Below are positions 13,160 through 64,000 of a stretch of DNA of 64,000 bases, one piece after another; position 1 is the stretch's first letter, and every line of letters starts with the position of its first letter. A model generated the notes under the pieces. That model saw only the letters and a list, made by a program, of their open reading frames with translations, did not search any database and had not been told where the DNA came from. This DNA comes from Psammoneis japonica (Eukaryota), in the NCBI GenBank assembly GCA_008632985.1, contig QPGO01000128.1, forward strand, positions 62,001 to 126,000, written 5' to 3'. The translations under genes were made by a program, and so were the position numbers.

Positions 13160-13877
13160 TAAGGCGGTTTCTTTTGTACTACAAATTGCCAAACACTTGG
13201 CAAAAACGCGCGTAAAGCTCCTTCGTTCGCCTCTGAAGGGAAAATTTCTCTTCGTTGCTCGATTGCACCAGCCTGCGTAGAAAAGCACACAATCTTCCCG
13301 TGCGTGATTTTTTGGAAACAACACAGATGACACCGCTCGCACTCTTCAACCATGGCAAACAAACGCCACACACAACCGTGTCCGTGCACGGGAATCAAAC
13401 GCCGAAACTCCACATGATGCTGTCGAGTGTGACGATGCAGATGGTCCCACGAGGGACAAAATGCTCGACGAGCTGTGGTGCGGTGTGCCGAAGAGCGCGA
13501 CAGGAAGTTTCTGGTCGGCGGACACCTGCCGGATGACGAGGCGCACCGTCAATGCATTGGATGTGGGCATTTTTCTGTGGATGAGCCATGCCAAATTCAA
13601 AGTGTTGTGCAGAGGAATGAGAAAAAGCTCGATGAGTGGCAAACTTCGGTCGAGGAGTTTGAAAATTGCAAGAGGAGTGGCGCGCCATGTTGTGCACCCG
13701 GAGGAAAGCCCCAGTCTCGTAGACCGACCAAGCCCAAAGAGGAGACGGCATTTGCACTCTGCCATTGTGTGCGGATCTTCATTGGGATGGATGCCAGTGG
13801 CATGGAAAAAAAAACAGACAACCCAGAATCAACAATGCCGCTGTGTGATCCGATTGCATTGATGCCGAAGCAGTGTC

Positions 13878-14052
13878 GAATCTAGAGTGGTGCTGAACAA
13901 AGAACCTGGATGAGTGTCGAATCCAGAGCAGCATTGAACAAAGAACCTAGAGCGGTGTTTCATCTGGAGCAGCATTGAACAAACAACCTCTAGAGAGCAG
14001 TGTTGAATCTAGAGCAGTGTTGAACAAACAACCTGGAGCAGCATGGAATCCA
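13878..14052 (+). repeat. Degenerate minisatellite inside the TIR element
   Basis: Irregular repeats of AGAGCAG(C/T)(A/G)TTGAACAAA(G/C)AACCT and GAATC(C/T)AGAG. Confidence 0.7.
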
Positions 14053-14210
14053 ATCCAGGGTTGGCTGCAATCAAGTCACTCCCTCCGCCGACAGAGAGAA
14101 GTTGATGTTTGCCCTCCTGTGCACCACAAAATTCAACCTCTTCATCAAGCAACATGACGCATTGTGCGCTCTTGCACGTTGCGCGAGCCATTTCTTGCCC
14201 TCCCGTTGCC

Positions 14211-14600
14211 GACGCGTTCCAGGTCCAGGTGGGACCTCGTGCTGCTGAACTGTGACATCGACAGTTTTTTGAGTCTCGTCGCATGTCGCGCACGCAGATT
14301 TCTGCGTGATTTTTTCGACATTTTGTGTCATTTTACGGTGCACTCATTGAGCGATCCGTCCAACAACTTTTGACATTTTTTGTTGCAGCGCGATTCTACA
14401 ATGTCTTAAGAATCGCGCAGGGCAGGCGAAGTTGCAAAAACGTCGAGTGGCAAGAGGCACAATTGCACCACAAACTTGGCCGTTTATTTGATGTTGAAGA
14501 TGAACACATCCATTGATTAAATTCTCGCACTACGGAGCTCGCACGCAGAATTCTACGGGCCCAATGTCACACGGAGTCCCACCTGGGGCTGGAACGCGTC
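14211..14600 (+). mobile_element. 390-bp MITE with 25-bp TIRs and 4-bp TSD, copy 1
   Basis: Starts GACGCGTTCCAGGTCCAGGTGGGAC, ends GTCCCACCTGGGGCTGGAACGCGTC; TGCC on both flanks; inverted homologue at 35761-36147. Confidence 0.9.
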
Positions 14601-15715
14601 TGCCTCAAATGTGTGCACAGCAACACCAGGCATTCAACAATCGAACGAATTTCACCAGTGTTGGTTGATGAACGACAACTTGAGCCGCAATGCTCCTGAA
14701 CAGAAGCAAAAACTACGCATCACGCTGGCTGGAATGTCAAAATGGTGCAGACGGAGAACAAACAACAAATGTGAGTGAAGCCGCCAACGGAAAAAATGCA
14801 AAGCACCAAAGCTCTCTTTCGTTGCCATTTGGAGTTAAGTGAAACACGGGAGAGTGTGAAAATTGGCAGAATCGATGACAATGGGCACCGCCATTGTTGG
14901 GTGCATCCTCGTGCTTCACCGTGTCTTCGTCGGAGGTCGGAGGCGGGAGTCGGAAAGCAGCAAGACGCAGCGCTGTAAATTTCTACGTGGCTCTGGTACA
15001 AAATCGCAACGAATGGAAAATTTCCCTTCAGAGGCGAACGAAGGAGCTTTACGCGCGTTTTTGCCAAGTGTTTGGCAATTTGTAGTAAAATTCGACAAAC
15101 AAATAAACGACAAACATTTTGAGTCTAATTAGTCAAAATGTGTTTATCAATGTGTCGCTTTCCGACCCCTTCTAATGTAAATGAAAGATAAACATCGGCC
15201 GGCAGCAGTTTGAATTGCTTAATACATTATTGTGTATGAATGATAATATAAATTTTTGAATATTTTTATATTTATTCGTGTCATATGCTCAAGACATAAC
15301 GAACATTTATATTGGCATTAATGATTATATGCATCATAAATGTCATTTCGGCTGGCGGGCGGTTTGTTTATCCATTTTGTTTATCTCTCGAGTTGTGGCA
15401 GCGATTCGATTTTGGTGCCACAGTGGCATCGATAAAGATGAACAAATAAACACTTCATAACCCAAATGACTAACAAGACTCAAAATGTTTATCGTTTATC
15501 GTTTGTGTCGAAAATTTACAAAAGAAACCGCCTAACAGACAAGCCCGAACAGAGAAGAGCGCCGCAGCGCCGCGGCGGTGCGTGCATCAACGCAAGCAAC
15601 AACTTGCAGAGTTTGTTCGAAGTTCCGAGTTTGAAGTTCCGACATTCAGGTATCGTGCACGAATCGTCAGTCGAAACTGTGCAGCAGATAGAAAGTCCAG
15701 TTGAATGTTGGCACC

Positions 15716-17326: not shown

Positions 17327-19029
17327 AATAATTTGACAAATGCAATGGTGAGAGCGCTGAGCACAAGGAAAAAAGGCCTGACAATTGCTTGGTTCAAAAT
17401 AGCATGAGAGCTTCCCTGCACCCAACCCGCACAGTAGCACTAACAATTGCTATATGGCTTTTTGTTGAAACTTTCACCACCTATTAGCGCCGCCATTACC
17501 GACTTCTCGTACATGCAATGTTGCGATAGAGACGGGACACGGCCACACCTTGTCTGGCTTCAATCCGGCCGCGACCGCGTATCCTAAAGATCTCTGAAAG
17601 ATACAGACATTATGTTGAACCATGAGCGTGCTGCTGCGTTTAACATGTCCATCAGCAAAGCAAGAGTAGCACGGAAATGAATTTTTTGTCGATTCCTCGC
17701 CTTCTATCGGTGGTGGTGTTCTTCCAATGTCCTGTCACCGTCGTGAGAGCAACGGCCAACACTGAATCATCATCCGTTTCGTCGCACTGTGTTCGGTCCC
17801 CAACGGGGGTCAAGAAAGCCTTCTATGTGTGATGCAGCAGACCATGCATGTGGGAGCAAAACAGCAACCATCCACCAAGCTCCAAGTGGTGAATGTTGCA
17901 ACCAGAGGGACAGGTGCCATGTCCTTCGTTGCCACCCTCAGGGAGTTGAGCTGCACACCCATTCATGATGACATGTTGGCAGATCAGAAGTGGCTGATTT
18001 GTTTGGATCAACATTTGGTGCAAACCAAACTGCTGCCATGACTCCTGTTGAGTGGGCTTTCAAGCTGGTGCTCACAGGTTTGATGTCATGGAATCGGGCA
18101 TCATGATGCCCTGTTAATTTGTCGAACAAGCCGCCCAACAAAGTGACACAAAAATCATCGTTTTGTGCTTTGTGACGAGATCCGCAAAAATGGGTTGAAA
18201 GTTTTTTGAGTGTCTGGCATGCTGTTGAGATCTTTGAAAGGAGAAATGCCCAGCACTTTGCTGCGACACAAAGCCATCATCAAATTGTGGCCAAAGAGGA
18301 CAAAAATGGCCAAGCAAGCAAAGAGGAGGAGGAGGAGGAGGAGAAAAAGAACAAAAGAACAACAAGAAGAAGAAGGGCATGTCTTGCAACCCTCAGCTGC
18401 TCAGCCCAAGGGAGGTTGTTGCATTGTGAAATGTTTGACCAAAGCTTGTTTGGTGCTCGTCCTTGATGGGAGTGCGTGGTGAAGAGGGCGGGCGCAAACG
18501 CCGTGAGAACTTGTTGCATCCTCGCCTGATGGACAGGCAGACCATCTGATTTCCAAAAACAAAAAAGGATTGCACAGTGACCACGATGATGTCCAATGTG
18601 TGGGAATGTGGCAGATTGCACCGCAGAGATGGAAATGGCAAAACAGACAACTCAGGAGGTGCGGAACAACCAGTCGCTAAATTGCGAGAACAAAAACTGC
18701 TCTGCTCAACAACCAACAAGAAGAGTTTGCAGAGAACAAGAAGTGACTTGCATTTGTGCCAAACTCAACACAGATGAATGTGGTGTGAAGACTTGTCCAG
18801 AACAAAAAGTTCTTGATTGCATGAAAGAAGAACAGAAGTGAGGCTTTGTTCTCAATTTGAACCCCAGACCTCCGATCTCATTCGTTTCTTGATCTGTGAT
18901 TGGGCGAGTCTTTGACGGTGGTTGATGGCGGTTTCTGAGCGGTCATTGCAACACGCACAGTTTGATGGTGCAATCACATGGGACACACACATCTCACAAA
19001 TGAAGAACAATGTTGAAATTGCAGTGCCT

Positions 19030-20871
19030 CTGAAAATGTTGCAGAGCAGATGGCAAACAAAGTTGAGGAACTGGTTCTTTCACAGCATGACATTTTTGCC
19101 ACCAGGTTCAACGTCAAACAAAAAGAATGCTCTCTGACACTGGAGGAGAAAAAGGCAGGAAAAGACTGGAACCAAGCCCGCAGAGAATTTGTTGGGAAAT
19201 GCAATGAAGTTTTTGTGCCACATGTGCGTGCACTCCAATGTCACAATCAAGAAGAGATCGCATCATCGACCATCTCACCACCAATGCACAATGCTGGCAG
19301 CATGACAACAAGTCAATGAAGCAAGTTCAATGAACAATGAAGCAAGCAATGCCATCCATCTGCCATTGAAAAGTGGGAAGCTTTTGCAAATCTTTTAAAA
19401 GAGAAGTTTGACATGACCAGGCTTCCACTGCCGATGACTGTGCCATTGTGGGCAACCGTGGTCAGCAAGAGATGACAACAATGAATGAAATCATGGAGCA
19501 AAGCTTCCTCAACATGTTTGTGTTTGCACCATTTTGTGAAGCTGGTCTTGTGTGTCTGCCCTTCCAAGTGGATTCTGAAGAACGGGGCTGTTGTCCAACA
19601 ATTGGAATTCCCAACAAAGCCTGTTGCATGGAACTGACAGGAAATGACCCTGTCCAAGCTCAGAAAACAGCAGCTTTTGAAGCAAAGGCATTGCACAATG
19701 TGTCACTTCCAAATGACTTTGACAAGTTGAAGGAGTGTCATGAGGAGGCGGTCAAGAAGCAAGTGACAGTGAGGAAAAAAGAGCGATTCAAGAGCTGGTC
19801 TCAAATCTGCCACCAGCTCACCTGGGAATTTGCGTGCATGGTTGACAATGGTGTTTGATGTGGAGCTCTGTTTTGTGCTTCGAAAGCACACTTCATCCAC
19901 CTTGATGGATCAGGTGGGGAAGTTCACAGGGTTGAAATCACTGATGCACACATTGCTTGTCAGAAAGACTTTCTTCAGGCTTGGGCGTGTGTGATTTGTC
20001 TCGCCAATGAAAGTCCAGCACCGGCTGATGGAAACCACAGTCTTGAAACATCTCCAGGCACTGGCATCAGTTGGCTCAAAGAGACCCCAATTTGTGAAGC
20101 TGAAGCATCGGAATCAGTGATTGAAGGGCAAGAGCAAACTGGACATCGTCCCAGCAACAATGATTCTTCTGGTGGCGCTGAAAGCAGTGACGAACTTTCT
20201 GGAGGAAGCCAAAGTGACAAGGGCAGCAGAACTTGCCCCACGTCCAAGAAGCCAAGACATGAATCTCCTCAGCGCAGCATGAAGAACGGAACCAGGCAGG
20301 TGACTTTGACGTCATCACCGCCTCGGTTGGCTCAGTCGAGGTCTGATGAGGATGAGGAAGGGACCACTACTTCACTCCCACTCACCCCGCCAGACCACTC
20401 CTTCTTTGATTCGTTTCCTTTTGAAAACGAATTTGTAGATTCAGTCGATTTTCAAAGTTTGATGATCGGCCGGTTGTTGGGGATCGGAAGGAACGGAGAC
20501 GTCTGTGAGAGCGTCTATGGTGGAGAAAAGGTTGTGGTAAAGCAGTTTGATCTATCGAAGAATTTTGAAAGTTACGAGAATGAGGTCAAGGCGCACGTGC
20601 GCCTGAAAAAGGCATGGGGTGAGCTTGTTCCTACCCCAAAGTTTATTGCGCAGTCACCATCTGGCATGGTCAGGTTCCTTGGTCTACAGAAAGGGAGGTG
20701 TTTGATGGGCAGTTTTGCACCGTGATTGACAAGCTACGGAGTGACTATAACTTCCAACCTCTTGATTATTCTCATGGTCGCAACTGTATTGTTGTAGATG
20801 TAGACAATGGAACAAAGAAGTTGCTCATTATCGATCTAGAATTTTGGAAAGACGCTGTGACGATTGAGTAG
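19030..20871 (+). pseudogene. Pseudogene of a protein with a C-terminal protein-kinase-like domain (start approximate)
   Basis: LLGIGRNGDV..VVVKQFDLSK..YENEV..WGELVPTP..GRNCIVV..LLIIDLE-stop; upstream part has stops and Tyr-to-Cys/His-type residues (FACMVDNGV, KAHFIHLDG, QAWACV); frameshift near 20700. Confidence 0.7.
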
Positions 20872-21122
20872 ACTGATTTTGGTTATAGACGATTAGCTCT
20901 ATCGTTATCCTGTTAGAACAAGAGCGTCGATGTTGTAAGAAGACTGATTCAGCATACCCTATATCTCACTTTTCTAATTTAGTCGCAGTTTCGGTAGCGC
21001 ATAGCGTATCTTACAAAATGCCGTAAGACACTCTGTCGAAATATGACTTCTTCGTTCATAATCCTGCACAGAATTATGATTCGGCAACCGTCATCGCATT
21101 CTTCCTGTTTCCCTTTCCTTTT

Positions 21123-22610
21123 TCATAGATAGACTGCAAGCGTGAGAAACAGAAGACATAACAAGACGTGTTGTATGTACTGAGTAAAGCCGTTCTTGAT
21201 GGTAGAAGGTATCACATAGGCGCAAAACGCCATGACCCAATAGTTAACCATGTACTTTGGAAACACCAGCATGACNNNNNNNNNNNNNNNNNNNNNNNNN
21301 NNNNNNNNNNNNNNNNNNNNNNNNNNNNNNNNNNNNNNNNNNNNNNNNNNNNNNNNNNNNNNNNNNNNNNNNNNNNNNNNNNNNNNNNNNNNNNNNNNNN
21401 NNNNNNNNNNNNNNNNNNNNNNNNNNNNNNNNNNNNNNNNNNNNNNNNNNNNNNNNNGAAAGCCTTCGTAGACTTCAATGCAATAATCCATGGTCAGCAA
21501 GGTCCAAAGCGCCACGACAAACCATATATTACCAGAAACCGATGCTGACAAACACGCCAACACAGACGTGACAGTGGCGTGTCCACTAACCACCAAGTCA
21601 TTGCATCCCCCATTGGCTTGTGGTCGCAGGCCTACCAAAATCCAATTGGCCCAGTCGCTCGGCGGTGGATTGGGAAAGCGTTGGCCATAACACCGCGGTA
21701 CTTGAGAAGGCAAGACGGTGACCAAGAAGGAAATGACACGCACGACTCGTGCCGTGGATAAGACAATAAGCGCTCGCATCGACACGGCCCACAGGGTCCG
21801 TCTCGGGACCAATCCCAAATCACAGCAAAACATGGACGTGACGCACGCTGCCACCAGTGCCCATTGAATGTTGAAGAGTGCGCGCAAGTGCTGTAAATCT
21901 CGTCGTTGGAGTTGTAAAATGGTTTCGTACAGCCATTCTTGTACCAGTCGACCATTGTCTTGGAGGGGTGGTGGTGTCGTTGCCAAGCTATGACTATCAT
22001 GGTTGGTAGCCGCCACGACCCATACGAAAAAGTTATCCACCAACAGCACCACAACCAAGAGCAAGGCGGAACTAATGGCACGAATTTCTCCAGGCCATGT
22101 CAGCGGATTCAATGACATTTTGGTTTTTTCATTTGTGTTGTTATTTTGTTTCTGGGCTGTAGCTTCGTTGTTTTCGTGTTGAGGTCTCGTGGCAATTCCA
22201 AAGAAAAAGAGCGCCGTCAGCGCGATACCAGCACTTGCATAGGATGGTAATTGATTGCATGCAATGGCAAGCACAAACGCAAGTGCAATTAGTCGTTGAT
22301 GCGTAGCATTTTTGGCCGATGCAACCACCCAAGCAGCCATGATTACGGGTACAGACGCAATCCAAACGAGCATCCACCAATTTCGGTTGGGCCTCGTGGC
22401 TGTGGAGAGTACCAAAAGGATCAACACGAGACCCACCAGCCCAATAGCAAGAATCATTCCCTTGTTGGATTTGCATGCTGTTGTACTCGCAGCAGATGCA
22501 GCGCTATGATCCTTGTCGTTTCTCTCCACGTCTGTGCCTGATGCAGCGCTCATTTTCTTGTTCTTGTTTGGAGGAGGAGACGAAGCCTTTTTCCGAGAAG
22601 GTCTATACAT
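21123..22610 (-). CDS. Sphingomyelin synthase / inositol phosphorylceramide synthase family membrane protein (PAP2_C-like), partly masked by Ns
   Basis: PPPLQDNG, RVISFLVTVLPS..C, GGCNDLVVSGH motif; EVYEGF immediately before the gap where the HYxxD motif is expected; many TM segments. Confidence 0.85.
   Translation of the reverse strand: MYRPSRKKASSPPPNKNKKMSAASGTDVERNDKDHSAASAASTTACKSNKGMILAIGLVGLVLILLVLSTATRPNRNWWMLVWIASVPVIMAAWVVASAKNATHQRLIALAFVLAIACNQLPSYASAGIALTALFFFGIATRPQHENNEATAQKQNNNTNEKTKMSLNPLTWPGEIRAISSALLLVVVLLVDNFFVWVVAATNHDSHSLATTPPPLQDNGRLVQEWLYETILQLQRRDLQHLRALFNIQWALVAACVTSMFCCDLGLVPRRTLWAVSMRALIVLSTARVVRVISFLVTVLPSQVPRCYGQRFPNPPPSDWANWILVGLRPQANGGCNDLVVSGHATVTSVLACLSASVSGNIWFVVALWTLLTMDYCIEVYEGFXXXXXXXXXXXXXXXXXXXXXXXXXXXXXXXXXXXXXXXXXXXXXXXXXXXXXXXXXXXXXVMLVFPKYMVNYWVMAFCAYVIPSTIKNGFTQYIQHVLLCLLFLTLAVYL
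21276..21457. other. N-run (182 nt)
   Basis: Seen directly; second N-run at 24525-24924. Confidence 1.
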
Positions 22611-22806
22611 AATTTTATGGAAGATGGGATAGAATAGACAATCACCAACTACCGGTAGAAGCGAATGGCGATTGAAGAAATGCTTTCGCGCCGTTGCAAC
22701 CTGCAGCAACAGGCGTTGCTGCTCGTGCAGAATAGATCTGTGTCATCATGGTGTTGAATACGCAGTAAATAACGCGTTGTCGGTTGACCTGGATGGAAGG
22801 ACAGAC

Positions 22807-23000
22807 TGAAGCACGCACACCTGAATCATAAACATCTGGGTGAAAAGCTTGTTGTTCCTCGTCTTGGGTTTGCCCCCTCTGCTCTTATCTTGTTCAAGCC
22901 TCGATCTCACTTGCAGATTCAACTAAGAAACATCCAAAAATGGCTGTGAGAACCACGCTGAAGCTCCAAGCACTTTGTCCTTTGCACAGGTGCAAGCAAA
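22807..23000 (+). repeat. ~200-bp dispersed repeat; also at 25982-26175 (via duplication) and, diverged, at 30864-31070
   Basis: TGAAGCACGCACACC..AATCATAAA..TCTGGGT..TTTGCCCCTCTGCTCTT..CCTCGA..TGCAG..TCAACTA..CTGAAGCTCCA shared. Confidence 0.8.
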
Positions 23001-24297
23001 TGGGTGGACACACGTGTGTCTCTGCGGCGCTTTCTCACCGCGCTTCACCCGCCTCTTGCTGCTGCTGTTGTTGTCTGTCACATGGCTGGCATTGCAGCAC
23101 TGCACTCACTGTTGCATGTGTGTTTTGTGGTGGGGGCAGCATGCAAGAGCAAAACTTTGAAGTGCACATGACGATGATGACGATGCCGTTGCTTGTGAGA
23201 GCTGCGCCCTTCCCTCGGAGTTTGATTTTTTGTGGCCAGTGGGGAGTCAAAATGTGTGGGTTGATGTGTTGCAAGATGCAAGGGGTTGTTTTGCTCAAAA
23301 CTCCACAGCTTGGCTTCACCCCAGGTGGACAGTTGCCATGACACACAAAATGGATGTGGGGTTGTCGCTCTGCGCGCATCATGTGCACCTGTCTCTGCTC
23401 TCTGCCTTGTCAGCCGGGCTTGCTTCTTGGTCAGCCGCATCAAGCCATTCTCCTGCCTTGCTTGCTGTGGCAGCTCACTCTCACTCAAAAACCCTCCAAG
23501 TGCCATCATTTTGGAGTGCAAAAATCCAAGCATTGTGGCACACTCACAGGAGCCAGTCACATCTTCTTGTGCACGGAAATTCTGCATTTGGTCTGTCAGA
23601 TGCCAGAACAGGCACACACCCTCAACTCTTGGACATTGTGAAAACACTGCACTGCAGGAAGCTCAGGCCTGCCCATCTCCCCTCACAGTCTGAGTGAGTG
23701 CACAAACAGCCACTGACTGGACTGTGCAACAATCTGGCATGCTCAACAGAGTCAATCTCTTCCCACACAGCAAACTCACACCTCCCCAGCATCCTCAAAG
23801 TTCTGTGCACTTGCTGTGCCTGACAAATGACACCTGGGTTTTTTGCCATTTTGTTGCCCATGCATTGTCCTGTCATCACTTCAACAAGCAACATCATTTG
23901 ATGCCAAGCTGCGGAGTGACTGTGACTTCCAACCTCTTGATTGTTCTCATGGTCGCAACTGCATTGTTGTAGATGTAGACAATGGAACAAAGAAGTTGCT
24001 CATTGTCGATCTAGAATTTTGGAAAGACGCTGTGACGATTGAGTAGACTGATTTTGGTTGTGGACGATTGGCTCTGTCATTGTCCTGTTAGAACAAGAGC
24101 GTCGATGTTGTAAGAAGACTGATTCAGCATGCCCTGTGTCTCACTTTTCTAATTTAGTCGCAGTTTCGGTGGCGCATGGCGCATCTTACAAAATGCCGTA
24201 AGACACTCTGTCGAAATGTGACTTCTTCATTCACAATCCTGCACAGAATTATAATTCAGCAACCGTCATCGCATTCTTCCTGTTTCCCTTTCCTTTT

Positions 24298-36630: not shown

Positions 36631-36952
36631 GGCAGCCTTGAGGTTCTCAACCTCACGTCAAGACATGATCCACTGCACTGGACATTGATGCAAATTTGAC
36701 AATCTGCCTGCTCTGCTGATTCCACTGCTGGCATTGCTGCTTGTTGCAAATTCATTTCCACCCACAGCCCCCTTCACCAACTGGTGCACAGTTTGCGCAC
36801 AGATTCGTCTGACAAGAACTGCCGTTTTGAATCCTGGAGTTTTTCACAGAATGTCCAATTTCGCATTTGGCAGAATCCAAGTTCGTTTGCTGAACTGCTG
36901 GAAGCTGGAACCAATCCGTGCACAACATGCTCTCACTCTTGCACAATCAACA

Positions 36953-51927: not shown

Positions 51928-53499
51928 TTTTACGGGTCTATTGTTGCTGTTGTCGTCGCTCAATGTGATGTGCTTTGCATCGCTTGTGCACATGCAGTCA
52001 AAAACGACAAGGCAACAAAATGCGATGCTGCTGTTTTGGGTTGTGCGGGCCCAAATGAGAACTGTTGTGTCAGCGGGTCATGTATCGTGATGAGTGCGCG
52101 GCATTCTGCAAACATGGAGGCCCATGTGCGGTGTGACAACTCTCCAGTCAGTCTGGCACAATGCAACAGGCTTTTCTTCGCGGGTGTTCATGACACTCAG
52201 CTTTGTTCATCATTCTTCTTTTGCAATTCTGACAAAGAAGGTTGTTTGTTCTTCCACTCCATTGTGGGCTTCATTGTTGAGCTTGGGAGACAATGGAGTG
52301 TGTGTGAGAACCAACATGGGGCAGAATTTGCTGTTGCTTTGGCAGAGAGCTGTGCTGAGGCAAAGACGCCCTCTCTTTTGATGACATGGACACACAAAAA
52401 GTGCACAGCTGGGGAAGAAAATGCAAGCATGAGGTCACATGATGCAGAAATTCAAAGGATCATGGACTTGCAGCAGGGCCTCCAACAGACTGCTGCAGCG
52501 GTGTTTTTTGCTTCCCTGCTGGGTCCTTTTCATTGCCCAACTGTGGCATGTCAATGAGTCAGCCACAACTGACAGCCTCCATTTGAACTTTTGTTTTGTG
52601 AAAATGGTGGGAATGGTTGCAGGTGAAAAAGCAGTTTTGTGTGCATTGTTTGCACTTTTCACGTGTGTCATTGGCCACTCATTGTTGCTTGTCACTCCTC
52701 AGCCATTCTTGGAGCTCATCCCTGTTTGTGGCTCAGATCTCTGCTTGGTTGTTTCAAGAAGGTTGTCAGCATGCCACACTGTCATGGTGGACATTGTTGA
52801 CATTGCAAGAACTTGACATGCCAGCATTGTGAGTGGTGCCTTGTCTCTGGCATTTTCTTGTCTCCAGCTGGTTTGGCGCATGTGTGCTGCACACTTTGCC
52901 TGTCTTTTGCACACTGCATCTTGACTTGCATCATTTCTTCATTGTGCTGGAGAGACATTCCAAATGCTGCACTGGCATGGCAGGCATTGCAGCTGTTGTG
53001 AAAAACAGTTTTGCTCACCTTGCTTGACCCTGCCATTTTTGAGCTGATGTTGCTTTTCAAATCCTTGCGGCTCTCTGGTGCAATTGTGGCTGGAGGCAAA
53101 GGGGATCCTGGTTGTGACAAAAGGAAGGGCAAATGGGCAACCAAAGCAACAGCAAAAACCAACAGAGCTGTTCATTTGTGAAGACTGTGGCAACTGGCTT
53201 GAGCGCTGCGTGGCACTTGAGATGCTTTGCAGCTGCAGGTTTGTCAACCAGCTTCCTTGGTGGCAGACATTTGAAAGCATTTTTGTGACAATGTTTGATC
53301 TTGATTGCAGCCAAGCAGGTTAACCTGCTGCTTCTTAGATGAAAGAGAAGGTGTCCCATGGTGGCACACATGTGCTTTCTCCAAGGCCAGCTCACATGAT
53401 GCCTGAAAAGCCTGGATGTTGCTGAGCTCTTGGCCTCTGGCCTCCTGAAAGTCAGCTGCTGGGAAATCATTCATGCCCCCACTGCAAGTCCCTCATTGG

Positions 53500-54350
53500 A
53501 GCTTTTGCCATTGATGATGTGAGTGGAGACAAGCACAGTGACCAGGAACTCTGACATGGTGAAAGAGACATTTTTCAGCGGAGAGTCCCCCATGTTGTCA
53601 TGAGCATGTGAAGCCAGCAGTGATCACCAAATGGCTGCTTTAGAAATGGACTGGCTGCTGCACCTCCAACTCTTGAAACAACAGCAGCAGGGCCCAGCTC
53701 AAGGATGTGCTTGTCAAAGCAATGGTTGCTTTAAGTCTGTGGATGGGACAGGCGTGCCACCCTTTGCCACATCTTTGAAGTGTGCTTCTCTTCCAAAAAG
53801 GGCAAGAGACCAGTTGCGCCACCAAACAAACCACCAGTGGATTTTCTGCCAACACAAAAACACAAGGCAGACGTGACTCATGTGGCAATGTTCTGAATGA
53901 GCCCTGATGGTGCTGCTCACACAGCCACAAAGCTTTTGCCATTGAGAATGTGAGTGGAGACAACTGTGGCAATCAGGAGCTCCAACGTGGTGAAAGAGAT
54001 TTTTTGCCAGCAGAGAGTCACAAGACATCATGCTGACCTGTCTTGTGAGCATGTCAGGGGACTGACTGCTGCACCCCCAACTCTTGAAATGACAGCAGCT
54101 GAGTCCAATTTCAAGGCTGTGCCTGTCAAATCACCAGTTGTTCCAAGTTTGTGGGTGGCACACACCCTCCACCACATTTTGAAAAGTGTGCTTCTTCCAA
54201 AAAGGGGGCAAGACATCAGGTGTGCCACCAAACAAGCCACCAGCAGATTCTCTGCCAGCACAAAAACACGAGGCAGACATGACTGGTTTGTCTTTTCCAT
54301 CAAGTGGATGCCTCGTGTGTCACTCTCCTGGATGAGCCCTGCTGTGGCCC
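53500..54350 (+). repeat. Diverged tandem duplication, ~430-bp unit; further short repeats 54660-54800/56010-56150 and 52170-52270/57540-57620
   Basis: GCTTTTGCCATTGA..ATGTGAGTGGAGACAA..GGTGAAAGAGA and CCAACTCTTGAAA..CTTCCAAAA occur twice ~430 bp apart. Confidence 0.8.
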
Positions 54351-56399
54351 CCACTCCACTCTGAGACTGATCTTGGCAATGAAACAATCAGTCAACAACA
54401 ATGGCCACAATGACAAATGTGCAGCTGCAAGCTGAATCACACCTGGTGACAGTTCTCAATGCCAGTTCCGCCAATTTTCACAAACAAAGGTCCTGATGGA
54501 AGCTGTCAATTGTGGGCAACAAAGGCCTGATGGAGAAGCCGAAGAAAGTTTGGCAAAAATGCAGCAGTGTGCACTGTGCTGAGGAAAGAAACCATGGTCA
54601 TGGACAGACTTGCAATGGTTGCAAATGAGCCAAATTCTGCAAATGGGAGAAGCCATGCTGGTGCAGCTGCAACCTGCTGCAGGCTTTTGCTGCTGTCAGT
54701 CAACAGTGATGTGGAAACTTTTTCTCCCTGTCCTCTCTTGAAACGTCTGTGTGCAGGGCCAGTGTTTTCTTTGCTTCACAGACAAGTGACAAGAGAGAAG
54801 GGTGGTGTGTCATTGTGTGTCATCTTCAGGGCGTGTGCATCTATTTTTGAGTGCATCACATTTTCAAACAATTGCCATCACTCCCAAATGGGAGAATTGC
54901 AATGAGTGGAAACAAGGTCCTGGTGAAGGTTCACTCCATGTGCAATTTCTGACACTCTCACTCTTTCTTTTTGTCTTCAATGATGCTGTCAGGTTGGCCA
55001 TTGATTGGCCAACAATTTCTGGACTGACAAACTCAGTTGGTCAGTGGAAAACAGCAGGGGAAAGAAGCCGCCCCCAGCCAGCACCACTTGATCCTTTGCA
55101 CAGAAAACAGCCTGTGGAGCAAGCCACTGGAGCACAAGCCAGCCACTGCAGCAGACCTCACACACAGCTCTTGCACTTGCATCAATGGCTGTTTGAAAAT
55201 GACTTCTGGTTGCGCAAGAGTGGCACACATGCCCTCGAGAACTGCCAGCTGAACACACTCACAGCTTGAGGCAGCACTGCCAAGCCAGAGACCACCCAAA
55301 ACAGTGCTGTCATCAATGGAGGCAACAAAAAGAGGTGTCACTGGTCATGGTTGCTTTGCTGTCTGATGGCATGGTCTGATGCCCATCAGGAGTTGGGCTG
55401 GGAAAAAGGAAGAGAGGCTGGGTGTGGCCATTGTCTTTGCACTGCCAGTGGTTGCTGGAAGTTGTGTGTGTGTGTGAACAAAGATGGCTGAGGCTGAAGA
55501 AACATGAAAGGCATCAACCTGTTGCCAACATGGTGTGCACATGGGGACAGCCCTGATGAGAAACACAGGGGGGGGCTTGTCTTGTCAGCGTTTGTCCAAA
55601 AAGATTGCCCCTCACTCCCAAACTTGGCCCCCAGACAAAGACCTGCCCTGTTGGTCAAGTTGGGTGTGTGCAACAACAACACTTTGCAGCTGCAAAAAAT
55701 TTCTACATCATTTAAGGAGACAAGGCCCAAGGCATCACCACACTCTCAAACTTGGGTCAAGAAGTGCCACTTGACAACCACATCAGTGATTGCTGCTTGG
55801 AAATGAGTGAGCCCCGAATGATGACACAGGCTGCGCTTTCAACTCTCATCTCATTGCAACCACAAACACAAAGGGTGCTTGTGTTGGGAGTTGTGTCTCA
55901 CACACAAACAAACCTGCAAATGCATGATGTCATTTCCATGGTGTGTGGGGGTGGAACAGAGGAGTCAGGGTGGTTTTTGTTTGTTGGTGCACAGAGAACA
56001 ATTCTCTGCAAATCCAGCTGCAACATGTGGCAGACTTTTGTGGCTGTCAGTCAACAGTGACACACGGAAACTTTTTGTCCCTGTCCCTCTTGAAACATCC
56101 GTGTGTGGGGGCAGTGTTGTCTTTTCTTCAGAGACAAGTGACAAGAGAGAACAGGCATTTCGAGTCAACTGCATGCATGAGGTTGCACAGCAAATGCTCA
56201 TCACTTGAAGCACAAAATTGGAGCCACAGAGCTGGATCAAGTGGGTGGTGCATTTGCCAGAAGACTGCATGGAATTCCCATTCAAAGCTTGGCATCAGTG
56301 CAGTCAATTGTGTTGAATCCTTCATGGCCCAATGTGCCCATCAACCTGAATGGTCAAACCTGTCACATGCTTTGATGTTGGCAAAAACAGGATTGCATG

Positions 56400-57040
56400 T
56401 CCCATGTCATCAGATTCACCACTTGTCACATTGTTCGGGGGCATTGATCCCAACATCTGTGTTGGCAAGACCTGGTGACAAGACATTCTTCACCCAAATC
56501 CCATGATCACTGCCCAAGTTGTTGGCCAAGCCCCCAGTGGCAGTTTTGAGTCCTGCGTCAGCTGTTGCCAGTTGATGCTTTCCCAGGATGTTGTGCCAAC
56601 ACTCCCAAAGTGAATGTGATCAAACCTCCATTGGACAGTTTTGATGCACCAAACAATGCAATTGACAACTGCAGCAACAATTTGAGATTGATTTGCTTCA
56701 CAAGACCAGTGCAGCCATCGGAACCTTTGATGGATGAAGTTCCATTTGACAGTCTGGCCATGACAACCAAATGATCAATCGATCCTTTTTTGCAGCCATT
56801 GAAGCAAGCTTTCATGGCATTGGTGTCAGTCATGTCAAGGAGTTTTGTCATCACTGCACTGCCATCAATCGGCTTGGAACACATGACATTGAGTTTGGTT
56901 TCAGCTTGGGTTGACACAATGATTTCTTCTGACCAACCAGTGCAACTCTTGCTCTGGATGCACAAGCTGCCACTGCCCTGGCCTTGCCCATCCCAGATGA
57001 ACCACCAAAAAACACAACAGTTGATCCTTCCATCAACAAC
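56400..57040 (-). pseudogene. Decayed short-chain dehydrogenase/reductase gene (limits approximate)
   Basis: EGSTVVFFGGSSGMGKA..ARVALVG, LLDMTD..GSIDHLVV.A, GGLITFT.G.L..HPG in different frames. Confidence 0.65.
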
Positions 57041-60000
57041 AACTCCAATGGAGAAGAAGATGCCATGGCAACAAAGCAGCCTGGCTTGGTTTTGCAAAGT
57101 TTTTGTTTCACATTTTTGAGCAAACATCTCATTGGCAGATGCCGGCAACCTCACCAGTGTGACTTCAGGGTTGTTTGGAGACTTTCAAAGTTTTTCAAAA
57201 AACACAGCAAGACGTCACATGTTCAGACTGGAAATGGGTTGTGAGCTCCAGTTGCCATCTCAAATTTGGCAGTGTGCATGTTTGCAAGAGAGAAATCATG
57301 ATGTGCACTGACAACATGTCACTGTTCAACAATGACATTGCTGCCCAGAACAAAACCAAGGATCCTGTGCATGCATGGGATTGAGTCAATCTGGGTCAAT
57401 TTTTGTCATCAAGGTTGTGCTTAGAAATCATCATGCACCCTCCTTCTTGCCTGCCCACATGCCCCCAGCATGGGTGGGGGTGTCTGTGGGGGTGTCACTG
57501 CAGCCAGACTCCTTTCAGCAGGTGGCAGCACTGCAGGCTGTTCTTCATGGGTGTTCTTCATGACACTCAGCTTTGGTCAGAGAAGGTTGCCTCTTGCTCT
57601 TTTCACTCCATTGCAGCTGTCAGAGAGCTCTCACCATTGGGCACTGAGTGGTGACTCTCACCTTGTTTGGAGTGCCCAAACCCACACTCTGCCCCTTCCC
57701 TGTTGGACAACAAAGTGTTCCCAGATGCAGAAATGGGCTTTGTTCAGTGGTGCCCCATTGCAGATGCTCTGGCTCCAGGCTGGGGTGCTTTGCATGAGAC
57801 ATCTGCACCCATTGCCATGCTGGTGCTTTCCATGGTCTGGATCGGTGCTTTGCATGAGACACTCTGCACCCATTTTGGCAAACACTGCTGAGTGCTGTTC
57901 TGCCATGGGTCAGTTGGGCACACTTCTGTTGATCTGCATTGGGCAAAGGGCTGCCAGGACAAGCAGCACTGTGTGACTGACTTTCTCTCCCAGCCAATTG
58001 AGCATGAGAGAGCTGACAAACGGTTGGGTTGACACCAAGGTTTCTGCTCTGCAACACTCCATTGGTGCCCGGTGTGCCCTCGCTGCTTGAAAGCTGGGCT
58101 GTTCAGGGTTCTTCTGTTTCACTTCATTTGAGAGCTCCTGTGCTGAGGCAGAGACATGTCCCATTGACACCTTTCAGGGGTTGCTGGGGTTGGCAAGCAT
58201 GGCAGTTTTGCTGGCACTGTTGGCACCATGAGGGATGTGTGATGGAATGCATGGTGCCACACACTGGCTGTGGGTGCAGCTTGTGTTGGCTGGCAATCCA
58301 CAGTCTGCCACAACAGAGAAAAGCCCATGTGTGAATGGTTGTGGGTGAGGCTGCCCTCATCTCTGCAAGTTGTGGGTGACTGCTGAGGTTGCTGAGGCTG
58401 TTGACAAGAGCCAGGGGTGGCTCCTGACAAGACTGACATCATGGGGTGCCTCTAAGGCACAGGGTGGGGGTGCCACCTCTTGATGTGTGATGACTCAAAT
58501 TCACAGCTTGACAGGGCTCACCGGCCTTCCAAAGGTGGTGGTTGGGGCCATTTGCCCCAGCTGTGGACACCACTCTTTTTTTGGCATTGTGGTTGCAGGC
58601 ATTGTGGTTGGCAGCATTGTTGTGGTGCAAGCAGTGTTTCAATTGGAGGCACTGGCATTTTGGAGCAGCGTGGGCAGCACCAGCAATGATGCTGTCTTCT
58701 GCTTCAGCTGCAATGAAGCAAAAATGTTGACAGCAACAGCACAGGCTTCTGAGGCTGCAGTGGGTTCATTGTTTTGTCATCACCAAGTTCAAGAAATCTG
58801 CAGTCACCAAGTTGAAACTCAGCTTGGGCATCATGGGTTGGTGTGCACACATCATGAGTCAGTGTGCCAGCCTGGGTGCATCATGCACACATTGCCCTGA
58901 GGGAACTGTGCATCATTGGGGTGTCCATGAAGCACAGGAGTGGCCCCAATGTCCCCTGAAACATTTTGCTGTTGCAGCAGTGCTCAGAGAAGGACACAGA
59001 TTTGGTTGATGAGAGCAGAGTGGTGCCAGACTTCATGATCCCATGCAAGTCAGGGGAGTCCACAGAGTGGGTGAGGTGGTCCACACAACAGCAACAAATG
59101 CTGAGGCAGCATGCTCTGACACAGAGTGGGGCTGAGTGGGTCCACAGCAGTCATCAGGCCAGATGGTGTGAATGGCAGTTGTGGAGCCAAGGCACAGTGT
59201 GGGAGGGTGACTTGTGTTCCTCATGGCAGGCCAAAGCTCCTTGGTGATGCCTGAAACAGCCCACCTGGCAGCCTTGAAAACATCATGAGTTGACCTCAGA
59301 TGAGCATCAAGACCCTGCCAGTTTTGCCACTCACAATGGGTGGAGCGGCGATGCTGCTGAACTGCTCACAAAGGGTTTCTGCCAACACATCTTTGGCCAC
59401 ACAACAAGACACAAGTGGGCCAGATGGGGGTGCAAATGAAGTCAAGAGGAAGCGGGGATGTCCTCACAATCACCCATGATCCTTTTCATTGCATCTGTGA
59501 CAGCTGGCTCACTCTGACTTGTCTGCTCAGTGGCAGCCTTGGCAGAGAGATGAGGCAAGCAAGGAGAGCATCATCAAGTTTGTTGGCACAGTTGTTGGCC
59601 ACCTTTTGAGTGAATGCAGCCTTAAACATTTTACAGGTGGACCCCACCAGGGATGACCCCCATTGCCTCAGAAGCAGCTGACTCCCCATGAGTGCAAGCT
59701 GGGTTGTTGATGCCAGCTTTTCTGGAGCAGCTTGTTTGCTGGAAGAACACCTCTGCAGGTGCTGCAAGAAGGCAGCTTTGCGGCAGCCTGAAAAGCTTGT
59801 GCAGTCTGTTTGTTCAGGGCAGGAATGACCTTCTGGTCAAGTGCAGTGCAGCTGCCATGTTGGCGCCATCTGTGACCTCCATTTAGAGTTGACATGAGTC
59901 CAAAAAGTCTCTGACAAGTTCTTGCCTCTTTGTCAATGTTGGAGCAGCTGTTGATCCACATGGGTGACCAGCTGGTCTTGGCCAATCTGGCCAAGCTGCC

Positions 60001-60798
60001 TCAACTGGCCTTGACAATGCATCTCAGGCTTGGGCATTCTTGCAGTTGGCTGAGCACGCTGGTGGCAGCATCCTGCCTGTGACCAGTGCCACCGCTGTCG
60101 ACAGAGCACAGCAGAGCTCGTGCGCCAAGCGCTCTGTCGGCATCTCAACAGTGCTGGGAAAGACCAACTGTGCTGTGTCTCATTGGTCAGCATGGGGGCC
60201 TCCCTTGTGGTTGCACATGAGCATTGCTGACTTGCTGACAGGTCCCTGCATCTGCGCAGGATCGGCACACCCACCAAGAAGCTCATTGGCTGGTGCTCTC
60301 CAGCAACTCCAAATGTCGCAGAGAAGAAGTCTGCAAGAACATTTCCTCAAGTTTCACTTTTCTGCACAACCCTTGTGAAATTTTGATCAGGTGTCTTGGC
60401 AGACAACTGACAACAAGCAATTGCTCTAAAATCGAACGCCAGGTGCATTCATTTTCTGCCATTCTTTTTTCTCACCCAAAGCAAGCCTCTGTCACCAATG
60501 GATTTTTCATTTTACAGCATGTCATTTTCTGAAGGATGCCCCCATCGAGCGTGCGATAGTCGTGTGGCGCAACAGCGGAGGGAAAGTGTGAAATTTTGCG
60601 TGTATTCCTGAAATGACATCTACGTGGCATCAGAAGTTCATGTCACGCAGTATGTACTTCAATTTTATTCCTTCTGCACTTTTTACTTTTTCTTACAAGA
60701 TTCACAAAAAATGAATCAATCATCGCATGAACCATACGCAGTGCAACGACGGATCACAATCTCGCTGTTGACACCACACCTGTCAATCTATCTGCAGT

Positions 60799-61848
60799 AT
60801 GAACAAGATTCTCGGATTAGAAAGAAAGACCTGGAGGGCGGCAGTTGCCGAATTCGTGGCCATGACGCTGTTTGTTTTCGTTGGATGCGGCACCGCAGTC
60901 TCTGTTCAGACGCAGCAAATTGCAAATAGTCCGCCCGAATCTAACGACTTCATCACGGCGGTAGCGATGGCTTTTGGGTTTGCAATTGCCGTCCTTGTCT
61001 ACTGCATTGCTTCCTACAGTGGTGGGCACATCAACCCTGCTGTGACATTTGCTTTTCTGCTCTTGAGAGAGTTGAGCATTGTCGAAACGGTCTGCTACTG
61101 GATCGCGCAGATGCTGGGTAGTATGCTGGGTGCAGCCATTCTCTGGGGCTGTGTTGCAGGTCAACAGTAAGTCTACAACTGAAACAGTACATGATGCTTC
61201 CATGGTGTTATCTCTAACGCACTTGTTGTGTGTTGCGCCCTATGCTCTATGTCATGTAGAATGGAAGAGATTGGTGGACAACCCCCTTTCACCTTGGCTT
61301 CCAATCAAGTATCGGAATTCGAAACAACCGCTGCGGCCTTTCTCATTGAATGTATGGGCACCTTTCTGTTGGTCTTTACCGTCATGATGACAGCCGTCTC
61401 CCCCAAGAGTCATGCGGGCAACCTTGCGCCAATTGCCATTGGTTGGTCTGTCATGTTGGCCCACTTTGTGTTGATCCCCTATACAGGATGCGGAATCAAC
61501 CCGGGCAGGTCGTTTGGCCCGCACGTGGTGAGCTCCATGGCGGGTGTTGACTCAAGTAAGAGGGGTACTTGGATCTTCTATGTCGCTCCCTTTGTTGGTT
61601 CGGCCTTTGCTACTGGATTTGGAAAGTTCTTTATGAATGAATCGAGGGCCATGGATGAAGAGCAGGCTGAAGAGAATGAAGAAAAGATGATAAGCAGAGG
61701 ACTCATTTCTAACCGTCCACCAGCCTACAGCAAAAAGATATCTGCAGCAAAAGATCTTGTCACCAAAGCTTTACCGGTATTAGAAAAGGTCGAGGAGGAG
61801 GAGAAGGCAGAAGAAACTCCGGAAGTAGGCCAGGAAGAGGAGAAGTAG
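60799..61848 (+). CDS. Aquaporin (MIP family); exons 60799-61166 and 61260-61848
   Basis: AEFVAM, SGGHINPAVT, E..GTFLLVFTV, YTGCGINPGRSFGP, WIFYVAPFVG; phase-compatible GTAAGT..TAG intron 61167-61259. Confidence 0.95.
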
Positions 61849-62519
61849 TACCTTGTGTCGGTCGCCGGGGACATGATCGATTGCCACCACTTGTTCTTGC
61901 ATGCATAAGTATTTATGTAAAACAAACCTTTTAGTGCTTAAGTTATCATGAAACTACGAAGCACTTCTCCTGAGTCAAACATGTGGCTTCTAATGCTATG
62001 GAACATGGGACGAGGCACAATCAAGACTATTAATTCGTCCTATACATACGAGGAAAACGATGGCCATTGAACCAGTCCATTGAATTCTGTCCCCTTCTTC
62101 GGCCTTTTTGACGGGACGTACACAGAATTATCCCAAGCCTTGCTGAGGTCTTTCTCCACTATACCGCCCCTACATACAAATTAAGGCTTGATACTCCTTC
62201 TACTTCATACCTGAGAGCCAATGTCGCCCATTACAGTGCACTTTAAGCTTGACTAGCAGTTCGATTAAGTCGTAGAGCATGCCATTGAGACTCTTCGAGA
62301 TCAATTCTCTATATATTGGTGGGATCCTCTCAAAAACGAGACTCATAATTCTAGTCAGAATTGGAAATCACACGCGGGTAAGGAAGGTCGTCATAAAGCC
62401 CCCCGAGGCCAAATATGCTGAATCAGTTTCTTCATCCGCATCGTTTTCACTGTTGCCAGATTTCGAATTCTCTCATTCCAAATCCAGGATTGTGATTATG
62501 TGACATTGGCTGCCGGGTT

Positions 62520-64000
62520 GGGAAATTTAGTGCGTTTGAAACTTGCAAGTTTGGAGGATCCTGAAACATGGAACCAGGAAGTTAGACACAAGACGTTGTC
62601 GATGTTTGGAACTCCTGTTGTGCAAAAGAACAATCGAGCATCAAGTCGATCCGAGTGGCGCCAATGAGCGTCTCTGCATCGAAGAAAAAAAAAGACTTCG
62701 GTGCACGCATCGTTGGGGCTCGAGACTTGGCCTGTTTTGGAATTGAACACTGAGAAAAGCTTGCAGCAGTCGTTAGAGTTGCTGTGAGTCACAACAACCG
62801 CCAACAGATGTGGACAAATGGACTTCCTTTTGTCTCGCCCTTTGCCGGCATCGAATTGATTGAGATGTGTCGTCCTTTGCGGGTGCGCGGTGCAGTGCCG
62901 CGTGCCGCCGCGACACTGCACATGGCGCAGACAGCAGCAAGTGGGCCGCTCCGAAAAAGCACAGAGCTCCGAAGGGCGAATGGAATCCTGTGTTTCATCC
63001 CAAACCACCATGACGTTCAGCGCCCATGATGGCTCAATTGTTGCCACCTTTTGGTGACAAGAACAACCTTTGTGGAAGAGAAGCAATTGATTTGGTCTCA
63101 CGCAGGTGTCACCTCGGCAACATGAAACATGCTCAGGGTCTGTGTCCCCATCTCCTTGCCAGCTTTTCCTTGTTGGATTGGCTTGCTTTTGCAGCCACTC
63201 TTCATTGCCACATGATCAGCATGCTGGCACTTGCCACCACTGTCTTTTGTTGCCAAGCAGCTGCAGCCTGCAGCTTGCCTCCATTTTCTTTCACAGTCTT
63301 TGGTGCTGCGACTTCCAAGCACATGGCTTGACATTGTTTGATCTGGGGTGCTTGTTTTGACAAAGTGACTTGACACATGCAACCCCAAAGCCACAAACTT
63401 CCATTTGATGCAAGCTTGGCATGATCAGCACTGTGCAGGTTGAGTGACTCTATCATGCTTGAAGGGGTGCCAGCTTGACAGAGGATGCTTGCACAGAGCA
63501 CGCTCCTCACTTTGTTCTTTTTTGCAACTTCAAACCACGCTCCAACTCATCTTGAGCTGCACGTCCAAAGTGATTGGCTGAGTGCAAAGTCCTGCTTGCC
63601 AGGTGCACTTTCAAGTGCCAACTTGTTGTGCCAAAAAGGAAGAGTGAGCTTGTGCACTTACAGCACTGCTTGACAATTTGCAGCTTTCAATGCTTTGGCA
63701 CTCTTGCTGCCCATCTGCCACAAAAGAAAGTTCTTGACATTCTTGTGAAACTCAGTTTTTTGTCATGGCAGTGAATGCCCAGCCAACATGCTGTTTAGTG
63801 GTGGGTCAGATGAGGCAAAAGTTCTTGTCTTGTCTCTCATCCTGCACTGCTTCTGCACACACCTTCTTGCACTGACCAAGTGCTGCAACAACAAGACCAG
63901 CTCCGCTGTGCTTGGGACCAGCTGTTCCTTGCAGTGGTTGAGCAAACCAAGGCTCACAACCTTGTTTTGGCTGCTTGCAAAGCTCAATGCTGGCATTGAC
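62520..64000. other. TpA-depleted block running off the window end
   Basis: TpA nearly absent; CpG retained to ~63020 and rare after. Confidence 0.9.

Follow-up and report, generated by a model that had tools for sequence, protein, structure and literature searches.

TpA-poor blocks beside intact genes in a diatom contig point to TpA-directed hypermutation of DNA in place

Introduction

Why should long blocks of a diatom contig be almost free of a single dinucleotide, TpA, when the genes that adjoin them carry it at ordinary density? The question is raised by a stretch of 64,000 bp from Psammoneis japonica (GenBank assembly GCA_008632985.1, contig QPGO01000128.1, positions 62,001 to 126,000 of the forward strand), which we refer to as the window and in whose own numbering all coordinates are given. 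An earlier note, made from the sequence alone, had described nine TpA-poor blocks with sharp edges in this DNA and had read them as a fossil record of heterochromatin domains limited by active promoters or by selection. All of the results below come from this one 64-kb window, which includes 582 N in two runs (21276-21457 and 24525-24924). They confirm that the blocks are real and, through two pairs of paralogous sequences in which one member has been converted and the other spared, allow us to conclude with high confidence that the blocks were produced by TpA-directed hypermutation of DNA in place.

The TpA-poor blocks

TpA occurs 1475 times in the window, with a median distance of 18 bp from one TpA to the next, and 45 of the gaps are at least 150 bp long. 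The longest extends over 1709 bp (55713-57422), an event with a chance of about 1e-29 at the normal-state TpA rate. A two-state hidden Markov model (HMM) fitted to P(A|T), the probability of A after T, converged on states of 0.149 and 0.009 and delineated nine depleted segments that together occupy about 27.1 of the 64 kb (about 40%). When the observed/expected ratio (O/E) for TA was scored in 126 non-overlapping 500-bp windows, 44 fell below 0.1, 15 lay at 0.1-0.3 and 67 at 0.3 or above. The segmentation that had been proposed as a check on the blocks thus gives two states and a bimodal, not a unimodal, distribution, with some intermediate segments (for example 23970-25209, TA O/E 0.36). The segment 14397-14950 likewise counts as half-converted.

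Eight of the nine blocks described earlier are recovered by the HMM. The remaining one, 47860-48110, is rejected, as it holds four TpA (at 47914, 47962, 47986 and 48022), and 31030-38500, described as a single block, is indeed depleted but is split by the HMM at a 261-bp TpA-bearing island. A comparison of the blocks with assembly boundaries shows that neither N run meets a block edge.

The composition of the blocks indicates where the missing TpA went. TA O/E is 0.04 in blocks versus 0.56 in the rest of the window and CG O/E 0.34 versus 0.97, whilst CA O/E is 1.80 versus 1.22 and TG O/E 1.75 versus 1.21, the gain in CA and TG matching in size the loss of TA and CG. Pyrimidine-purine (YpR) steps are constant in total, making up 8836 of 36188 dinucleotides outside the blocks (24.4%) and 6642 of 27131 inside (24.5%; hand sums of the dinucleotide counts), as expected from transitions that turn TA and CG alike into TG or CA. 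G+C is unaltered (blocks lie at 0.47-0.51, like the rest), and there is no depletion of ApA.

Two paralogue pairs with one converted member

Self-comparison of the window, which was used to detect duplications and inverted repeats, reveals a tandem duplication with an offset of 3175 bp and no indels. Copy A (20727-23906, minus strand) contains an intact PAP2_C-domain open reading frame (ORF) at 21123-22742 (minus strand) and keeps its TpA, apart from the last ~970 bp (22933-23906), which are TpA-free. Copy B (23902-27081, minus strand) is a half-converted dead copy that has lost its start Met, contains two premature stops after it and has had seven Tyr codons changed to Cys or His. The copies differ at 82 positions over 2706 aligned bp, and 58 of these are transitions at TpA, A>G or T>C. 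Seen from copy A, its 82 TpA appear in copy B as 30 TG, 28 CA, 24 TA and no CG, and just one TpA in B is without a TpA counterpart in A. A further 24 differences lie away from TpA, nine of them CG>CA, and at non-YpR sites only 8 of 1309 positions differ. Copy B has therefore been caught in mid-conversion. The differences end at 22925, and farther on both copies are TpA-free, so the unit must already have held an older block when it was duplicated.

The second pair is the older of the two (background divergence 97/601). Copy D (40818-42201, minus strand) is normal as far as 41878 and TpA-free beyond 41882; it carries a live ORF for a one-helix LHC-like protein (OHP; 41296-41637, minus strand) whose match to Chloroa_b-bind is weak. 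Copy C (31126-32516, in block 31043-35869) is a dead copy of the same locus. The 36 aligned TpA of D correspond in C to 12 TG, 9 CA, 2 TA and 13 other dinucleotides, and the 60 CpG of D to 22 CA, 19 TG, 4 CG and 15 others.

Taken together, the two cases show a directional process that works on the DNA where it lies and leaves one member of each pair unconverted. The idea of a fossil record holds in so far as the process is regional, TpA and CpG changes being found only in the block copy of each pair; it does not hold for copy B, where conversion is half-way.

A separate feature of copy B concerns its CpG. Between 23902 and 26100 nine CpG have changed with respect to copy A, and every one of them has gone to CA on the plus strand, never to TG (binomial P=0.004), so that CpG decay shows a strand bias here, on the side of the dead gene's coding strand.

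Target, strand and speed

Conversion in copy B depends strongly on the base 3' of the edited A. The changed fraction is 23/43 where that base is C and 22/48 where it is T, compared with 10/38 for G and 3/35 for A, which shows that the preferred target is the A of 5'-TAY-3' (Y, pyrimidine) or, equivalently, the T of 5'-RTA-3' (R, purine) on the other strand. Such a preference predicts that TpA followed by purines on both strands should survive. In old blocks the surviving TpA are found in CTAA/TTAG, TTAA and CTAG at 0.18-0.22 of normal density, ATAC/GTAT stands at 0.013 and ATAT and GTAC are at zero; these survivors are an independent data set that agrees with the TAY rule.

The direction of change also varies along copy B. 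The first 16 events (up to 21002) comprise 15 TG and 1 CA, the remainder 15 TG and 27 CA, and a change-point permutation test across all split points gives P=0.0006. No reliance was placed on a Fisher test made at the end of the ORF (P=0.0006), its boundary having been picked after the pattern was seen. The pattern suggests bursts that affect one strand at a time and average out over time.

In copy B 71% of TpA and 9% of CpG have been converted, against a background divergence of 0.6% when both lineages are counted together. By our own estimate the TpA rate is roughly 13 times the CpG rate and, per site, roughly 200-400 times background, and we conclude that TpA and CpG are lost through two separate processes whose speeds differ about 13-fold. 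Blocks with a TA O/E of 0.10 or less span CG O/E values from 0.93 to 0.13; as TpA is lost first and CpG later, the blocks form an age series. The youngest-looking is 13219-14395 (TA O/E 0.10, CG O/E 0.93), within an element bounded by terminal inverted repeats (TIRs). It is followed, in order of falling CG O/E, by 36137-38504 (0.06 and 0.64), which ends 34 bp from a spliced transcript-like contig; 17707-20514 (0.03 and 0.46, with six TpA); 62596-63997 (0.05 and 0.44), which reaches the end of the window; and 25211-27836 (0.03 and 0.42), in which the converted portion of copy B is joined by TpA-free DNA of greater age. Lower values are seen in 31043-35869 (0.04 and 0.31), which contains OHP copy C and Mutator-like remnants, in 22933-23968 (no TpA, CG O/E 0.29), an old block inside the duplicated unit, and in 41882-44205 (0.03 and 0.26), between the promoter side of the OHP gene and a gene encoding a G protein-coupled receptor (GPCR). 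The series ends with 51941-60512 (0.026 and 0.13), the largest and oldest-looking block, with 14 TpA in 8.6 kb.

Block borders

The edges are as abrupt as had been claimed. TpA recurs every 10-40 bp up to 31040, 41878 and 51939, and from 27850, with density dropping within tens of bp at each of the four; beyond the first three positions, and before 27850, there is no TpA for hundreds of bp. The proximity of edges to genes is likewise borne out, the borders lying 14-748 bp from measured gene ends and being sharp to tens of bp. The closest, which the earlier note had placed within ~20 bp of the probable STAND ATPase start, is separated by 14 bp from the AAA_16 gene's probable ATG (51927). Another lies 34 bp from the end of the spliced transcript-like contig (block end 38504), the ends of a transcript-like contig over a DUF4209 gene are 142 and 253 bp away from two more, and others are ~190 bp from the PAP2_C ORF start, ~226 bp from the start of the GPCR contig and ~260 bp from the OHP ATG; for the remaining edges, distances to the nearest ORF ends reach 381, 609 and 748 bp.

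Two of the borders are related by sequence. A repeat at 22805-23040 (plus strand) is shared with 30864-31090, and block starts 22933 and 31043 are homologous positions within it; in both, the ~150 bp upstream retain TpA and the last TpA occupies a homologous position ~25 bp before ATG (22950 and 31055). Edge 41882, for its part, falls within the C/D repeat.

TpA is kept not only in the live genes but also in non-coding DNA beside them, with 8 in 41640-41880 upstream of the OHP ORF and 42 in 20727-21275, so that purifying selection acting on coding sequence is not by itself enough to account for the borders.

Read-level support for the assembly

DNA run X1 derives from one sample, and its contigs were built independently of the assembly. 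They cover blocks and genes alike at 62-65x and reproduce both blocks and borders, a single 5225-bp contig (27052-32276) crossing block, gene and block with four differences. In the tandem duplication the identical part has a depth of 112 and the two variant forms depths of 58 and 56; since both forms are present at full dose, A and B are paralogues and not alleles. A second run, X2, is listed as 'DNA?' yet is RNA-like, with GT..AG-type joints in its contigs, and it carries the TpA-bearing form of the PAP2_C gene. X2 gives no cover over most block bins of 24925-44924 (some edge bins and 34263-34929 are covered) and was not used as expression evidence.

At least 13 single-letter differences between the window and X1 lie in HMM blocks outside copy B (within 24925-44924), for example at 31357, 38123 and 42552, and among those listed 10 of 13 exchange CpG with CpA or TpA with TpG or CpA. 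These may be allelic or strain variants that arose from the same ongoing processes.

Relation to known systems

To our knowledge, hypermutation of a eukaryote's own DNA at TpA had not been known before a preprint of 2026, since when the class of mechanism has been known. Mutation-accumulation lines of Bigelowiella natans undergo local TpA>TpG/CpA hypermutation (Mettrop et al., bioRxiv 10.64898/2026.01.13.699255). According to the preprint, two hypermutable regions collected 231 mutations, 230 of them A>G or T>C and these stated all to be on TpA; two viral inserts mutate ~1000-fold faster than the remaining genome; and the genome holds 124 TpA-depleted, CpA/TpG-enriched clusters, an ADAT2-like deaminase being proposed (10.64898/2026.01.13.699255). 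The window shares with B. natans, as described there, the nearly exclusive A:T>G:C change at TpA, the confinement to discrete regions, a rate orders of magnitude over background, and TpA-depleted, CpA/TpG-enriched clusters rich in unannotatable and transposable element (TE)-like sequence. In B. natans bursts are reported from only some of the lines, in keeping with the strand-coherent patches of the window. The type of transition, the TpA target, the confinement and the rate are defining features of the B. natans type that this one window shows; as to its viral or other foreign targets, the window offers a Mutator-like remnant and a TIR-bounded element along with copies of two host genes.

There are also clear differences. 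The host here is a diatom (Stramenopila), whereas B. natans is a chlorarachniophyte (Rhizaria). Depletion here is saturated (TA O/E 0.03-0.1), compared with a Rho of 0.45 given for their nucleocytoplasmic large DNA virus (NCLDV) insert, and it is transposon remnants and duplicates of host genes that are hit here, rather than the viral inserts reported there. The terms trinucleotide context, CpG and diatom each have no occurrence in the text of the preprint, whose supplements may hold context data, and searches of the full-text literature turned up no account of TpA hypermutation, or of blocks free of TpA, in diatoms. New with respect to the preprint's text, then, are the lineage, the saturation, the host-gene and transposon targets, the TAY rule, the strand-coherent patches and the connection to CpG decay. 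What the earlier note missed is hypermutation with a defined TAY target and strand-coherent patches, a process already in print in 2026 for another alga.

In fungi, repeat-induced point mutation (RIP) brings about dinucleotide-specific transitions on both strands. As in RIP of ascomycetes, the process in the window is defence-like, kills duplicated genes and transposons by dinucleotide-specific transitions, and results in sharply bounded blocks of distinct composition next to intact genes. RIP, however, is C:G>T:A at CpA, creates TpA and lowers GC, whereas here TpA is destroyed and GC unchanged, and RIP strikes both copies, whereas here one copy per pair is spared (A and the gene part of D keep TpA). 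RIP is also premeiotic and depends on a methyltransferase of the RID type. Opposite chemistry and the spared copy thus rule out membership of fungal RIP, whose features are outlined in part in PMC2621366 and PMC7296669.

CpG decay of transposons carrying 5-methylcytosine (5mC) is known for diatom TEs, as outlined in PMC9998398. The window resembles this in the CG O/E of its blocks (0.13-0.93) and in the CG>CA/TG changes within the pairs, 41 of the 60 CpG of D being CA or TG in C. Such decay explains just the slower, second component and is unable to remove TpA.

In the natural tRNA substrate of ADAT2-ADAT3 the target has a 5' U neighbour (U33-A34). Enzymes of the TadA/ADAT2-ADAT3 kind convert A to I, which is read as G, and a single-strand substrate would give strand-coherent patches of the sort described above.

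Interpretation and rival explanations

The reading that we favour is that the blocks are dispensable and probably silenced DNA, consisting of transposon remnants and redundant host gene copies, in which a local hypermutation at the DNA level has turned nearly every TpA into CpA or TpG. The changes are A:T>G:C transitions at TpA in only one member of each paralogue pair and, as each site can be hit only once, no CpG is made from TpA; live genes and their short flanks are left untouched. The process would be of the same kind as the TpA>TpG/CpA hypermutation that arises de novo in B. natans, aimed at silent chromatin and not at sequence homology, with a single-strand-specific adenine deaminase acting in bursts as its probable agent, whilst the loss of CpG would represent ordinary 5mC decay of the same silenced DNA. 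As a whole statement, with targeting and enzyme included, in-place TpA hypermutation of silenced DNA seems to us probable, on balance, and is held with a good deal less confidence than the hypermutation itself. A link between the blocks and silent chromatin would be a reasonable reading, and an adenine deaminase is plausible, without motif support.

Several observations count against parts of this reading. The whole case is based on a single 64-kb window, and X1 is possibly identical with the assembly's own source data. At seven listed copy-B sites the X1 contigs show the copy-A letter only, a result that bubble popping makes indecisive. An overall runs test for clustering of TG and CA in copy B is not significant (P=0.116), and the dispersion of CA versus TG in 200-bp windows of old blocks (variance 1.12, compared with 1.14 in normal DNA) gives no sign of lasting patches. 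Amphioxus ADAT2 edits DNA with the motifs GAA for adenine and TCG for cytosine in the account given in PMC10354150, so the only ADAT2 shown to edit DNA prefers GAA/TCG and not TAY. A one-strand adenine deaminase is, moreover, indistinguishable from a thymine-modifying route on the other strand. Silent chromatin as the targeting signal is something that we infer, and a high-copy miniature inverted-repeat transposable element (MITE) still bears TpA (island 35871-36131) amid converted block DNA. Finally, the AAA_16 border lies so close to the ATG (14 bp) that a limit set by selection suits it better than one set by a promoter. Of the two limits that the earlier note had offered, selection therefore suits this edge; selection on coding sequence is not enough by itself, given the non-coding TpA kept elsewhere.

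Targeting might instead depend on homology. In a RIP-like process with A:T>G:C chemistry, duplicates would be sensed and mutated whatever their chromatin state; the two clearest cases, tandem copy B and OHP copy C, are duplicates, transposon remnants and internal degenerate repeats also lie in blocks, and dinucleotide-specific transitions on both strands together with strand-coherent patches recall RIP. Yet only one copy per pair is converted, A keeping all of its scorable TpA and D keeping 36 up to 41878, edge 41882 lies inside the repeat common to C and D, the high-copy MITE is unconverted and the main B. natans target is, in the preprint text, reported to be single-copy. We regard this explanation as unlikely. 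The chemistry, for its part, might start from thymine, an enzyme modifying the T of RTA in silent DNA (for example to 5-hydroxymethyl- or 5-formyl-uracil), which then mispairs with G to give T>C. TpA is self-complementary, so every change is equally well described as T>C at RTA, and 5-hydroxymethyluracil in dinoflagellates prefers TpA. A thymine hydroxylase that silences TEs is described in PMC11572971 in dinoflagellates, another lineage of the stramenopiles, alveolates and Rhizaria (SAR). Strand-coherent patches suit both models, and nothing in the window separates the thymine route from an adenine deaminase; we regard the thymine route, too, as unlikely.

Less room is left for the other explanations. 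ADARs follow a neighbour rule of 5' U/A and 3' G. Hyper-editing of retroelement transcripts by an ADAR-like enzyme, fixed by reverse transcription, would account for A>G with a 5' U/T neighbour, which is the ADAR neighbour rule as cited in the discussion of the B. natans preprint. Copy B, however, is an in-place, indel-free tandem DNA duplicate complete with promoter and intergenic DNA, the blocks cross unrelated elements, no reverse transcriptase was found in blocks (236 ORFs and 18 read-through frames), and the preference for a 3' pyrimidine and the undepleted ApA depart from the rule; we consider such RNA-level editing very unlikely. ADAR or APOBEC editing of retro-intermediates is rejected on the same two counts, the structure of copy B and the sequence context. 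Systematic error of base calling, polishing or assembly in modified or repetitive DNA might be suspected from the two N runs in the scaffold and from a DNA run of one sample that is perhaps the assembly's own data. Against it stand the X1 contigs, which reproduce blocks and borders at an even 62-65x with both duplication variants at ~57x each, the TpA-bearing PAP2_C form in the RNA-like run, the avoidance of N runs by block edges, and changes that are complete at consensus level and obey a tetranucleotide rule, and we find an artefact scarcely credible. Native composition or selection, with TpA avoided for coding reasons or to escape a TA-targeting nuclease or transposon, could draw on the mild under-representation of TpA everywhere (normal-state O/E 0.56). 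In both pairs, though, it is the functional copy that bears TpA and the dead copy that is converted, and the blocks are without long ORFs or recognisable families, which makes this explanation extremely improbable.

Beyond the favoured reading of in-place hypermutation of silenced DNA lies a wider possibility. Diatoms may possess a DNA-editing genome defence in which a strand-specific TAY adenine deaminase (or a thymine-side equivalent) is recruited to every silenced segment, erases TpA fast and stops within tens of bp of live genes, as an old, SAR-wide counterpart of RIP with opposite chemistry. We put this forward tentatively, as a proposal more likely to fail than to stand in full. If it were true, there would be a natural A-to-G DNA editor working in a double-strand context, and its presence in a stramenopile and a rhizarian would point to the age and SAR-wide spread of such a RIP counterpart. 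The window itself shows the B. natans signature taken to saturation in a diatom, diatoms being major marine primary producers; the process would be neither lineage- nor virus-specific, so that genes shared by carriers and absent from non-carriers would be candidates for the enzyme. TAY preference and strand-coherent patches form a rule that any candidate enzyme must reproduce. Fast TpA loss combined with slow CpG loss could serve as a two-speed clock able to date silencing events, converted blocks blind homology-based annotation of TEs and pseudogenes, and a natural TA-specific A-to-G DNA editor would be of interest to genome engineers.

Block content and repeats

The recognisable content of the blocks comprises a Mutator-like transposase remnant, a TIR-bounded element, the dead PAP2_C copy and the dead OHP-locus copy, in agreement with the claim that it is all TE, duplicate or pseudogene. 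The TIR-bounded element, a probable DNA transposon (13174-15090, 1917 bp), has 98-nt inverted repeats that are 91% complementary and holds block 13219-14395. The Mutator-like remnants were identified by Pfam at 35120-35896 (minus strand). The Pfam scan took in 236 ORFs of at least 70 aa, in which it found two Mutator fragments (one barely above the cut-off) and three chance-level zinc-finger matches, and read-through translation with X at stops was applied to 18 frames from three of the nine blocks; these 18 frames gave no family. No viral family and no reverse transcriptase was seen in the 236 ORFs or in the read-through frames of the three blocks. Long ORFs are absent from the blocks, block 51941-60512 has no recognisable protein family, and an Rfam scan of the window at gathering thresholds gave no match.

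The MITE-like element (35761-36147, minus strand) is ~390 bp long with 34-nt inverted ends and has a second copy at 14208-14603, the two agreeing at 79.6% over 387 aligned bp. Part of it is extremely abundant, X1 word depth reaching 44750 in bin 35597-36263 as against ~62 in unique DNA; a 23-nt word from it had no match in metagenome scans. A 41-bp tandem repeat (13869-14041, 4.1 copies, 75% matches) lies within the TIR-bounded element, and several of the few TpA remaining in block 13219-14395 sit in its TCTAGA word. Outside the blocks, 7059-7419 and 12760-13145 form a direct repeat, 69% identical, with both copies TpA-normal, showing that repeats as such are not always converted.

Neighbouring genes

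The live genes of the window are long and intron-poor, with introns of ~100-125 nt. The DUF4209 gene (28197-30734, minus strand) occupies a normal island (27850-31040) between two blocks and is spanned by one transcript-like contig (27978-30790); a search of 5.8 billion proteins returned just four homologues of its ORF, the best at 51% identity, which indicates a species that is not well sampled. A live class-C GPCR gene (7tm_3 plus ANF_receptor; 44711-47059, plus strand) also lies in a normal island. Among the genes it alone offered a taxonomic lead, the three atlas clusters closest to it (0.98-0.99) consisting for the most part of Bacillariophyta; metagenome scans with it gave 20 pattern matches of which none was confirmed. 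At 44431-44924 (plus strand), an X2 joint 44636/44761 (GT..AG) marks a 5' exon of this gene.

The AAA_16 (STAND-type) ATPase ORF (49552-52077, minus strand) adjoins the 8.6-kb block at its 5' end and remains open for 45 codons into the TpA-free DNA (51941-52077), with an in-frame upstream Met at 51993. The start may be either 51927 or 51993, and the promoter would lie within the block. A small spliced gene by a block edge is indicated at 38538-39155 (minus strand) by X2 intron-like joints at 38760/38864 and 38999/39099 (CT..AC). Lastly, the ORFs at 39503-40315 (plus strand) and 41296-41637 (minus strand) both have predicted N-termini with a hydrophobic stretch ending in an SFAP motif, which we take to resemble the cleavage motif of heterokont plastid targeting.

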